NCBI GenBank assembly: GCA_963754655.1
Contig: CAVWGN010000001.1
Location: 672,001 to 736,000 of the forward strand
DNA length: 64,000 nt
DNA from: an uncultured Chlamydiae bacterium
GTDB lineage: Bacteria; Chlamydiota; Chlamydiia; Chlamydiales; Parachlamydiaceae
Direction of reading: 5' to 3'
The notes under the pieces were generated by a model. That model did no database searches. It worked only from the letters and a program-made list of their open reading frames with translations, and had not been told where the DNA came from. Every line of letters starts with the position of its first letter. Position 1 is the first letter of the stretch. This document shows, piece after piece, positions 52,505 to 54,789 of the stretch. Position numbers and translations under genes: made by a program.

Positions 52505-52620
52505 AAATATCCTTTATTTAAATTTATATATTTTAATTTTTTTATTATTAATTTTATAGTAATTAAAATTTTAATATTATAAATATAATATATTAAATGC
52601 AACTCTCTCCTATGTTTTAC

Positions 52621-52940
52621 GGGTGTGATTAAATCTGGGAGTTTACATTTTTAGTAGATCGATACGAAATGGTAGAGCGGCGGTAGCCGCTTTCAGTGGG
52701 AAGCCCCGTATGAAGCGAGCTTGCGAGTGGAATGCGGGGATGGGCATCAATAAAATATAAACCGCGGAAGCGGTGGGAGTGATCTTACGCTGCTTCCGCA
52801 GCTCAATGCTATTTTGCCTACACCCCGCATTCCGCTCGCAAGCTCGCTTCATACGGGGCTTCCCACTGAAAGCGGCTACCGCCGCTCTACCATTCGTATC
52901 GATCTGCTAAAAATATAAACTTCCAGATTTAATCACACCC
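52621..52940. mobile_element. Palindromic MITE, family D (320 bp) with 9-bp target duplication
   Basis: ~119-bp arms starting GGGTGTGATTAAATCTG; flanked by ATGTTTTAC (52612-52620, 52941-52949); inserted in the left terminus of a family A element. Confidence 0.88.
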
Positions 52941-53255
52941 ATGTTTTACTAAAAATATTTGACACTTACAGTCCTTCAGGTTGCATGACAACCCACTCAA
53001 CCCCAGGGGTTGCTTCATACGCATCAAGCTAAGAGATGAGCGTAGGCTACGCGACGCATTCAGTCGCCGCGCCGCTTCGCTCTGGGCTCTGTGTGTGGGG
53101 TTGAGGCCTTCGGTCGCCCTCCGGGCTCGGTCACGGTAGGCTATTACCAGTCGTCCTACGGACTCTAGCGGCAATTTAGAAGCCATTGAATGGTATTTAA
53201 GGCGTTCTGATATTGCCGCTAGAGTCCGTAGGACGACTGGTAATAGCCTACCGTT

Positions 53256-53397
53256 GGGACTTAACAAAGAACTGTTTTGGGCTTGATATTCATCGCGTCA
53301 ATTTAACAACACCACGCCTGTAACAGGCTTTAGGGGCATATTTCTCGAAAATGACGCGAAAAATAATCAAGCCAAAAACAGTTCTTTGTTAAGTCCC
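53256..53397. mobile_element. MITE family B, copy 1 (142 bp)
   Basis: TIR GGGACTTAACAAAGAACTGTTTTGGGCTTGAT / ATCAAGCCAAAAACAGTTCTTTGTTAAGTCCC. Confidence 0.85.
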
Positions 53398-53476
53398 GGC
53401 ATATGGCTAGGTAATCGGAATTTTTTATCTTTATTTTTGCAATGTTGCTTGATCCATATCCTTTCCCTCAGCGACG

Positions 53477-53768
53477 AGCGGCGTTAGCCGCGCATGGATA
53501 GTAGCCGTGGGTGTAGGCGCAAGCCGAAACCCACGGTTACCCAAAAACAAATTTGAGCCACGTTAGTGGCGTAGCATTCGTTTAAATAAACATTGCTCCA
53601 CAATCACATTTCCTACGCCACTAACGTGGCTTCATTTTTTTTACCATACACCGTGGGTTCCGGCTTCGCCTACACCCACGGCTACTATCCATGCGCGGCT
53701 AACGCCGCTTGAGCGACAAATTTAGCTTCTGGAGTTTGCCAGAAGCATTTCGCTCCTAGCCTATGGCC
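53477..53768. repeat. REP doublet palindrome, family C, copy 1 (left outer arm missing)
   Basis: Inverted pair of GTAGCCGTGGGTGTAGGCG..ACCCACGG units plus inner AGCCACGTTAGTGGCGTAG / CTACGCCACTAACGTGGCT. Confidence 0.85.
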
Positions 53769-53910
53769 GGGACTTAACAAAGAACTGTTTTGGGCTTGAT
53801 GTTTTTCGCGTCATTTTCGGGAAATATGCCTCTAAAGACTTTTACAGGCGGTGTGTTGTTAAATTGACTCGACGAATATCAAGCCCAAAAACAGTTCTTT
53901 GTTAAGTCCC
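53769..53910. mobile_element. MITE family B, copy 2 (inverted relative to copy 1)
   Basis: Same TIRs; internal sequence is the reverse complement of copy 1. Confidence 0.85.
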
Positions 53911-54261
53911 GGCCATAGAATAGGAACGAAATGCTTCTGGCAAACTCCAGAAGCTAAATTTGTCGCTCAAGCGGCGTTAGCCGCGCATGGATAGTAGCCG
54001 TGGGTGTAGGCGCAAGCCGAAACCCACGGTTACCCAAAAACAAATTTGAGCCACGTTAGTGGCGTAGCATTCGTTTAAATAAACATTGCTCCACAATCAC
54101 ATTTCCTACGCCACTAACGTGGCTTCATTTTTTTTACCATACACCGTGGGTTCCGGCTTCGCCTATACCCACGGCTACTATCCATGCGCGGCTAACGCCG
54201 CTTGAGCGACAAATTTAGCTTCTGGAGTTTGCCAGAAGCATTTCGTTCCTAGCCTATGGCC
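53911..54261. repeat. REP doublet palindrome, family C, copy 2 (complete, 351 bp)
   Basis: GGCCATAG..GAAATGCTTCTGGCAAACTCCAGAAGC... / ...GCTTCTGGAGTTTGCCAGAAGCATTTC..CTATGGCC; core repeats copy 1 at a 493-bp period. Confidence 0.88.
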
Positions 54262-54402
54262 GGGACTTAACAAAGAACTGTTTTGGGCTTGATGTTTTTC
54301 GCGTCATTTTCGGAATATATGCCTCTAAAGCCTGTTAAAGGCGGTGTGTTGTTAAATTGACTCGACGAATATCAAGCCCAAAAACAGTTCTTTGTTAAGT
54401 CC
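54262..54402. mobile_element. MITE family B, copy 3
   Basis: Same TIRs and orientation as copy 2, 493 bp downstream. Confidence 0.85.
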
Positions 54403-54548
54403 AGACCGAACGGTGGGCCTCAACCTCACACACAAGCCCAGAGCGAAGCGGCGCGGCGACTGAATGCGTCGCGTAGCCTACGCTCATCTCTTAGCTTGAT
54501 GCGTATGGGGCAACCCCTGCGGTTGAGCGGGTTGTCATGCAGCCTGAA

Positions 54549-54670
54549 GAGGCTGACAGCAAATTGATAATTTCGGACGTATATAATTTATTTTAACTGG
54601 TCTTGAGTATATTGTGAGTGGTTTCAAAAAATTATTTAAGGTCCGAAATTATCCATTTGCTGTCAGCCTC
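54549..54670. mobile_element. MITE family E (122 bp) with 3-bp target duplication
   Basis: TIR GAGGCTGACAGCAAATTGATAATTTCGGAC / GTCCGAAATTATCCATTTGCTGTCAGCCTC; GAA on both sides; removing it restores family A CAGCCTGAAGGG. Confidence 0.8.
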
Positions 54671-54789
54671 GAAGGGTTGCAATTGTCAAAGATCAAGCCT
54701 GGAGCGAAGCCGGCGCGGCAATTGAAGGCGTCGTTTAGCTTGCTCTCTCTTGTAGCTTAATGTGTATGCGTAGCATTTGATTTGAAAAT

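Follow-up and report, generated by a model that had tools for sequence, protein, structure and literature searches.

A nest of putative miniature DDE transposons in a Parachlamydiaceae genome with cores resembling the inverted ends of subclass-1.2 Y1 transposase genes

Palindromic repeats are served by HUH transposases in REPtrons, where a RAYT (i.e. TnpA-REP) gene is accompanied by repetitive extragenic palindromic (REP) sequences and clusters of REPINs (PMC3116915, PMC8266576), and in TIRtrons, where a Y1 gene (i.e. TIRYT) carries long inverted repeats, some of them double-palindromic, that seed repeat families and dimers (PMC3733652). Twenty of 26 TIRYT examples belong to subclass 2.1 and none is reported for subclass 1.2 (PMC6006769). 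Table 1 of that paper describes subclass 1.2 by a length of ~148 aa, DH[IV]H, WQ and YIKNQKEHH-type motifs and a C-terminal tail, and enters 'no' for REP; typical IS200 end structures are generally absent. Several insertion sequences (IS), i.e. IS1397, ISPa11, ISPpu9/10, ISPsy8 and ISRm22, insert specifically in palindromic repeats (PMC1525189), and composites of MITEs, i.e. miniature transposable elements with inverted repeats, have been described as TIME-COMP and integron mobilization units (PMC13367494). The Acido-Lenti-1 motif (RF01687) is listed as probably RNA in Table 1 of Weinberg et al. 2010 (PMC2864571), and its function is given as unknown in two 2026 preprints. The subject of the present analysis is an intergenic stack of palindromic elements in a window of 64,000 nucleotides (C1:672001-736000, where C1 is contig 1) from the genome of an uncultured Chlamydiae bacterium of the Parachlamydiaceae (G000; 3.16 Mb in two contigs, 39% GC). 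One protein of the window has 82% identity to a protein recorded for a Parachlamydiaceae bacterium and 71-79% to proteins of Protochlamydia, and a second scores below the cut-off of a chlamydial NCBIfam model, in keeping with an environmental chlamydia. An earlier note, made from the sequence of the window, had described this stack as five palindromic families, A to E.

We consider it likely from sequence comparisons that miniature DDE transposons, nested probably through successive insertions, make up the stack and that their cores correspond to the inverted ends of subclass-1.2 Y1 genes, these ends being predicted single-stranded DNA (ssDNA) substrates. Read from the outside towards the gene, each end forms a module consisting of a small hairpin (H1), ~12 nt ending mostly in TAG, a CC...GG hairpin (H2), ~20 nt and a second small hairpin (H3). 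The modules are regarded as putative ssDNA substrates of the subclass-1.2 enzyme because of their analogy to the REP guide (PMC8266576) and their DNA-type loops. Module dimers would arise from Y1 cassettes by deletion or foldback, and gene-less dimers would then be taken up between DDE ends, after which DDE transposases would amplify them in trans. Capture and amplification of this kind are proposed because 244 of 248 G modules in the genome share four outer-flank families and, of 552 modules, 310 are enclosed by paired shells. Repeated landing of B-type and E-type elements, and of several full IS, in the modules would follow because most palindromic target words that are rich in GC are supplied by modules, the genome being gene-dense and AT-rich. 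Within the stack, the host (i.e. shell F with its A core) would have come first; D, E and a B-C-B composite, which then grew to B-C-B-C-B with an adjacent deletion, would have followed in any order.

The stack works like the sum of REP targeting by IS, REPIN clusters, TIRtrons and MITE composites, all of which are known (PMC1525189, PMC3116915, PMC3733652, PMC13367494). REPtrons and REPINs have in common with it a low-copy HUH gene with cognate flanking hairpins and an apparent foot of four nucleotides, the presence of more than one gene-repeat pair in a genome, dimers in both head-to-head and tail-to-tail arrangement and clusters formed by insertion into existing copies. They differ in their enzyme, which here is of subclass 1.2 with Y---Q--HH rather than Y---NP, and in their repeat, which here is a ~95-nt three-hairpin unit with an NTAG/NNAG foot and one inverted copy per side; amplification in G000, moreover, takes place mostly inside DDE shells with target-site duplications (TSDs). 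The genes resemble subclass 1.2 as described (PMC6006769) in length, in the HuH, WQ and Y motifs and in low copy number and low inter-copy identity, but inverted modules flank most of the genes examined here and seed repeat families. TIRtrons have the same arrangement of a Y1 gene between long inverted repeats that seed families and dimers but differ in subclass, and capture in DDE shells is not described for them in the accessible text of PMC3733652. Several IS families are likewise specific for palindromic repeats, whereas here at least five autonomous and several MITE families use one class of landing pad from Y1 ends. As in MITE composites, two miniature elements carry a passenger within one outer TSD (i.e. 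B-C-B); the cargo here, however, is a non-coding module dimer and B comes from a DDE family that is unclassified and is not Tn3. The new part is likely to be the conserved ends of subclass 1.2, their putative identity with Acido-Lenti-1 and their apparent capture in DDE shells.

The Y1 genes were identified through nine Y1_Tnp matches in G000, which comprise five distinct types (one of them doubled), a fragment, and an IS200-type protein with a fragment. The five types are 148-163 aa in length with DH[VIL]H, WQ and Y---Q--[HY]H motifs and 37-43% identity to the first, and the motif was present in 76 of 80 metagenome homologues. All are low-copy and dissimilar, apart from one near-identical tandem pair and a fragment. 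These features fit TnpA-Y1 subclass 1.2, in an assignment made by length and motifs against Table 1 of PMC6006769 and independently of that paper's hidden Markov model and clustering. The nearest solved structures were those of IS200/IS605 TnpA (E ~1e-9); the five types lie outside subclass 1.1 of IS200/IS605, with its W[TS] and Y[IV]ENQ motifs and near-identical multiple copies. A RAYT, which the earlier note had expected as the HuH partner, was rejected as all five types contain Y---Q--[HY]H and not Y---NP and NF047646 gave 23-25.3 bits against a cut-off of 80, or no match. Homologues of the Y1 protein were detected in 26 of 61 related genomes.

Modules were sought at the flanks of these genes with a strict descriptor, whose counts are partly circular as part of the AG-CC foot, together with Watson-Crick stems, is built into it. 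An inverted module was present in 22 of 60 flanks from G000 and its relatives, as compared to 2/300 for shuffled sequences and 2/60 for the wrong orientation. For the metagenome loci (i.e. the best 80 of 587 metagenome relatives), modules occurred in 96 of 144 flanks, 51/70 upstream and 45/74 downstream (controls: shuffled, 3/432; wrong orientation, 18/144), and inverted similarity of at least 40 bp was present in 54 of 64. Two further properties are free of the descriptor's circularity. In a sequence-only alignment of 28 upstream flanks, picked by match position, H2 was 93.9% paired with 57 cells changed on both sides, a result equalled by none of 500 shuffles; within this alignment RNAalifold picked out neither H1 nor H3. 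The loops of H1 and H3 followed a G..A pattern, on the strand towards the gene, in 103 of 157 distinct hairpins and a T..C pattern in 3; among triloops the G..A pattern was found in 74 of 95. The foot of the 96 metagenome modules was mainly ATAG (31), GTAG (26) or TTAG (23), with the AG partly imposed by the descriptor; by hand count, TAGCC was present in 17 of the 28 unselected aligned flanks, and the commonest foot in G000 is ACAG. H3 lies close to the gene, with a median distance of 17.5 nt on the start side and 15 nt on the stop side. The locus's own downstream module ranked first for 24 of 39 loci. Common neighbours were found for 0/136 pairs of 17 Y1 loci, and the cassette would therefore appear to move.

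Three of the cores in the stack had cognate best matches among the Y1 ends, i.e. D with Y1-2939, C with Y1-2802 and A with Y1-2429 (named, as is Y1-2542, after the C1 coordinates in Table 1). For D there is a match to either end of the 150-aa ORF Y1-2939, and what lies between the ribosome-binding site and the stop of that gene is missing. D and C are head-to-head module dimers without a gene and A is a tail-to-tail dimer; B and E had no good match to any Y1 end. When a model built solely from the metagenome flanks was run on the window, the top seven matches were one G module, four C modules and the two A modules of the intact host, the four C modules of the stack ranking second to fifth (E 0.008-0.03). 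Ends and cores are combined differently in other genomes: D ends in relatives enclose another module type (G022) or none, C-type dimers occur in another shell or in none (G002) and, across genera, the same ends surround different cores and like cores lie in different shells. An intact subclass-1.2 gene at C1:2939075-2939980 (L018) is enclosed by 199-bp inverted arms that reach past its modules and is the gene-bearing counterpart of the D architecture; three other loci (L035, L046 and L047) have comparably long arms whose outer sequence is unrelated.

Removal of D, the B block and E from the stack leaves a host that aligns over its full length with an uninterrupted foldback elsewhere in the window (Table 1), save for a 17-nt gap in the right arm. 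In outline, the structure proposed in the earlier note was borne out: D occupies the left terminus of the host between two copies of the 9-mer ATGTTTTAC, a B-C-B-C-B block (53255-54404) lies in the right arm with the predicted loss of ~17 bp, E sits in the right terminus between two copies of GAA, and the only open reading frame (ORF) of at least 100 aa, at 52929-53267, is without a Pfam match, in line with the proposed absence of a transposase. The YAGGG ends listed in that note exist in the intact host but both have been lost from the stack. All parts recur elsewhere in the genome, at 13-78 loci, as do the TSDs of D, B, E and F. Of the five proposed families, B, D and E stand, having terminal inverted repeats and many copies without coding capacity as expected of MITEs; C is instead the cargo of a composite, and A resolves into an ISAs1-type shell (F) surrounding a hairpin dimer (the A core). 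D folds with a z-score of -28 as compared to 100 shuffles. Ten clusters with at least four families were present in G000, one of them being the stack.

Table 1. Components of the stack and of an intact host, in window coordinates
Feature	Position	Strand	Remarks
Left 9-bp TSD of D	52612..52620		Also a near-terminal piece of host shell F; YAGGG end gone
D, 320-bp foldback MITE	52621..52940		9-bp TSD; no target preference; gene-less Y1 cassette as core
D core, left three-hairpin module	52676..52774	+	Best match: upstream end of Y1 at G000:C1:2939306
D core, right three-hairpin module	52789..52886	-	Best match: downstream end of Y1 at G000:C1:2939306
Right 9-bp TSD of D	52941..52949
Host shell F, left arm	52941..53015	+	ISAs1-like subterminal sequence and partial J-type module; weak match to Y1 ends, C1:2542121
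A core (left arm, 36-nt centre, start of right arm)	53016..53254	+	Tail-to-tail module dimer; best match Y1 end, C1:2429452
9-bp target of B block, in large hairpin H2 of A	53246..53254		Right copy lost with 17-nt deletion
B1, 144-bp palindromic MITE	53255..53398		Autonomous partner with equal ends: G000:C1:426687-428472
C1, cargo between two B copies	53399..53767		Best match Y1 end at C1:2802252
C1 head-to-head module dimer	53478-53570; 53615-53708	+; -
B2	53768..53911
C2, second cargo unit	53912..54260		99% identity to C1 over 300 nt
C2 modules	53971-54063; 54108-54201	+; -
B3	54261..54404		One terminal mismatch; abuts deletion in A right arm
Remaining A right arm	54405..54507	-
Shell F, right arm	54508..54690	-	Broken by E; truncated short of its end
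E, 122-bp palindromic MITE	54549..54670		Ends GAGGCTG; sits in loop of small module hairpin
3-bp TSD of E (GAA)	54546-54548; 54671-54673
Degenerate A-arm fragment	54691..54768	-	Beyond the coordinates of the earlier note
Intact host (F shell and A dimer)	24220..24754		535-bp uninterrupted foldback; YAGGG ends; 9-10-bp TSD

Genome-wide searches detected 41 loci for D (31 near full length), 78 for B (73), 13 for E (11), 47 for C (26) and 72 for the left end of the host (42). The true ends of B are CGGGACTTAAC, starting CGGGAC, with a TSD of 9 bp; the earlier note had placed them one base short and had missed the TSD. Twenty solos and 20 composites account for the 72 full B copies. A 9-bp TSD was found for 16 of 25 D elements, 9 of 20 solo B copies and, at the outer ends, 15 of 20 B composites; the right-hand copy is absent from the B block of the stack, gone with the 17 nt. 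C was counted as cargo and not as a free family because, in these 15 of the 20 B-C-B composites, a TSD of 9 bp lies outside the whole unit. By a hand tally, 40 of 47 C loci adjoin B and six of the remaining seven lie beside one Y1 gene. Comparable B-C-B-C-B blocks are present elsewhere in G000, and a larger form was observed at C1:413215-416384, where eight B copies alternate with whole and partial C units. At C1:2801500-2806300 (L014), Y1-2802 stands beside a small toxin-antitoxin-like gene pair and an array of C units that is broken by an IS256; this locus is the likely source of the C cargo.

The autonomous partner of B is a single 1786-bp element (L019) with two ORFs and the ends of B, inserted in a module hairpin with a 9-bp TSD containing one mismatch. 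Its large ORF had no NCBIfam match, and none of its 54 homologues has a recorded Pfam domain. A structure model (pLDDT 89.5) matched Hermes (E 6e-6) and, less strongly, the IS256-family ISCth4 and the P element, and on this modelling the protein is classed as a putative DDE enzyme of unclassified family with a helical insertion. Nineteen of 400 genomes of the phylum contain relatives of this transposase, which have 9-bp TSDs and, among their ends, TGGGGTG and TAGGGTGTT; the TAGGGTGTT type resembles the 80-pair M shell of G000. The transposase was not found in viral contigs nor B DNA in 60 relatives; a 12-mer gave chance-level matches only in 300 genomes of the phylum, and a 16-mer gave no paired element among the matches listed in genome contigs (101 stretches). 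The 390-aa IS1182/IS5-like element was rejected as the partner of B, having GGGAC alone in common and a 5-bp TSD. A second member of the two-ORF family has ten copies (e.g. C1:69957-71802; L345), and both members insert, in G000, at GC-rich 9-mers of module hairpins.

The 13-bp ends of D, GGGTGTGATTAAA, are identical to those of an autonomous 1432-bp IS in a relative (G032), which has ten paired copies with these exact ends and 9-bp TSDs. The transposase of this IS scored 201.3 bits with NF033572 (ISKra4), by far the best match although just below the cut-off of 205, and its ORF may be read short; by sequence, D thus carries ISKra4-like ends. IS256, the partner guessed for D in the earlier note, was close but not exact, as the eight IS256 copies have other ends. 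For shell F, one end of an ISAs1 element in another relative (G337; NF033564, 379.6 bits) was identical to the consensus end at 21 of 26 positions by hand count, so that the ISAs1-like ends proposed for the host, of CAGGG type with a TSD of ~10 bp, agree with the sequence comparison; TSDs of at least 9 bp were found for 8 of 23 F pairs as compared to 0.6% in the null. The A core was also found inside a different, CTAG-ended shell, which has CTAGTACT in common with an IS630 of G000. The proposal of REP-like cores with borrowed IS ends is therefore supported and sharpened, with an ISKra4-like, an ISAs1 and an unclassified DDE element as the respective sources for D, F and B. E has its 3-bp TSD in 6 of 11 copies, and an E-like 159-bp MITE was present in a module loop in one relative (G033). 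IS701 and IS1595 domains were absent from G000. The commonest hybrid in G000 is not in the stack: the M shell, with TAGGGTGTT ends around a G-module dimer (~80 pairs, e.g. C1:44862-45254), which is nested in 73 of 80 copies and supplies most of the RF01687 matches. An ISAs1 fragment with a CAGGG end was observed at C1:500900-502700 (L013) among nested remnants of autonomous IS; we take it to contain an IS630-like fragment, both lying in another decayed transposase.

Several observations weigh against the proposed nest of DDE shells with Y1-derived cores. The match of the F arm to Y1-2542 is weak (24 bits), the model from the metagenome flanks fails to recover D or the disrupted A modules at E values up to 3, and 242 of the 552 modules lie outside defined shells. 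TSDs are limited to 8 of the 23 F pairs and 41 of the 80 M-shell pairs. Neither an ISKra4 nor an intact ISAs1 with the ends of D or F was detected in G000 itself, and an autonomous partner of E, for which the earlier note had suggested an IS5/IS1182-like family, was found neither in G000 nor at 30 junction loci of 73 family genomes. The A, C and D modules of the stack fall below the RF01687 threshold, with a best score of 12.8 bits against 37. To these is added the partial circularity of the descriptor counts noted above.

The frequency of nesting bears on an explanation close to that of the earlier note, in which hairpin elements recognize each other's hairpin or cruciform structure and insert into one another in a self-organizing manner. 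As compared to 31% of 20,000 random non-coding positions, a repeat flank was observed for 19 of 20 solo and 18 of 20 composite B insertions (37/40 combined) and for 10 of 11 E copies, but for only 5 of 25 D copies; nesting is enriched for B and E and not for D. Context classes number 25 among the 40 B loci, each of the 11 E loci has a context of its own, E and the 390-aa IS always occupy the loops of small hairpins, and the ten multi-family clusters also fit mutual insertion. Autonomous IS, however, behave alike, with repeat flanks for IS256 (8/8), the 390-aa IS1182/IS5-like element (10/10), IS481a (5/5), IS481b (3/3), IS4 (2/2), IS5a (16/23), IS5b (7/7) and an unclassified element (9/10), and with values of 3/11 and 1/3 for IS607-type elements; these counts are partly dependent, as six of seven IS5b copies have one common flank, which is a further point against the reading we favour. 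The sites used by the MITEs are also those of full-length elements of the IS256, IS481, IS4 and IS1182/IS5-like types. With TSD copies included, the strict 9-mer of B occurs 394 times (repeats, 240; ORFs, 130; other non-coding DNA, 24), and 802 of 855 sites of the E target word lie in repeats. Because the target words lie mostly in repeats, sequence preference and loss of insertions in genes would predict the nesting rates of B and E without recognition of structure; relatives of the B transposase in other genomes also use varied targets. Recognition of structure is accordingly a quite unlikely cause of the nest. An assembly artefact of collapsed or chimeric repeats is very improbable. Among the contig pieces listed for two public runs none extends across the stack, which also counts against our own interpretation, and C1 and C2 are nearly identical, but exact TSDs flank D and E, every part has private substitutions (median identity to other copies of 91-98%), similar B-C-B-C-B blocks occur elsewhere in a two-contig assembly, and B adjoins an H2 hairpin in an independent aquatic sequencing run.

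A different function for the modules has also to be weighed, since RF01687 aligns as the reverse complement of H1-spacer-H2, i.e. its two hairpins and 12-nt linker correspond to the outer half of the three-hairpin module. On the Y1 flanks, 20 matches were found, of which 12 exceeded the threshold of 37, in 9 of 20 hand-picked and mostly descriptor-positive loci. G000 yielded 1077 candidates, and 11 of 150 scored were above 37; the modules of the stack, with a longer H2, do not reach this value, and Rfam gave only sub-threshold miRNA-like hairpin matches on the stack. Acido-Lenti-1 has been noted near group II introns. A three-hairpin transposase end would be a likely explanation for this abundant family. 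If, as its listing in Rfam and PMC2864571 as probable RNA implies, the modules acted instead as a small RNA or as a tnpA 5' leader or 3' stabilizer, they would be passengers and targets in a MITE nest and not Y1 substrates. The short distance of H3 from the gene is consistent with such a role, as are the occurrence of nearly all G modules in larger shared units and the fact that direct Y1 spread was not seen in G000. The G..A loop bias, however, tracks the strand towards the gene at both ends, G-U pairs are few in H2, and the two modules are inverted, so that a transcript would contain one strand of the module at its 5' end and the other at its 3' end. C-GNA-G triloops, moreover, form stable DNA mini-hairpins. 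With the TAG foot also being reminiscent of the REP GTAG guide (PMC8266576), an RNA function is unlikely. A bolder extension of the ssDNA interpretation, which is doubtful, would make subclass-1.2 enzymes a third ssDNA hairpin system beside IS200/IS605 and RAYT/REP, with foldback creating MITE families de novo. Nicking at a module followed by 3'-OH-primed foldback would duplicate an adjoining IS end, the modules would serve as landing pads for IS and as factories of new MITE families, and Acido-Lenti-1 would be a DNA end. Leads in this direction are the differing combinations of ends and cores across genera, the likeness of the A arms, which have an identity of 0.94 within as compared to 0.87 between copies (own arm closest in 12/26), the 5 of 11 E copies without a direct TSD, several with mirror-image flanks, and one F pair of 23 that is symmetric beyond its ends. 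The arms of D, B and E are not more alike within than between copies. In the F-A foldback at C1:217050-217583, symmetry extends ~40 bp past the shell ends into flanking DNA, which suggests an inverted duplication in place.

Under the favoured reading of miniature DDE transposons with Y1-end cores, it is the link between Y1 genes and Acido-Lenti-1 rather than the nest that carries most of the interest. In the literature searched, no link of Acido-Lenti-1 to subclass-1.2 ends, no conserved ends for this subclass and no capture of such ends in DDE shells were found; subscription papers, ISfinder/TnPedia and the motif descriptions of PMC2864571 were outside this scope and may matter. HUH-type ends would be reused as cores of, and landing pads for, DDE MITEs that stem from at least four IS families, which would explain how ~6% of a symbiont-type genome (186,926 bp by repeat masking of G000) can fill with repeats while genes are spared. 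The analysis also brings to light an unclassified DDE family, which has a narrow palindromic target of 9 bp. The stack is located between two tandem minus-strand DUF4116 genes with 75-nt repeats (window 50594-52504 and 54790-56703), and A/F elements were also observed between other tandem repeat-protein genes (C1:1429818 and C1:1434152). Elsewhere in the window, an IS481-family element (7528-9347) lies in the spacer of a G-type module, and all five full copies of this element use an equivalent type of site.

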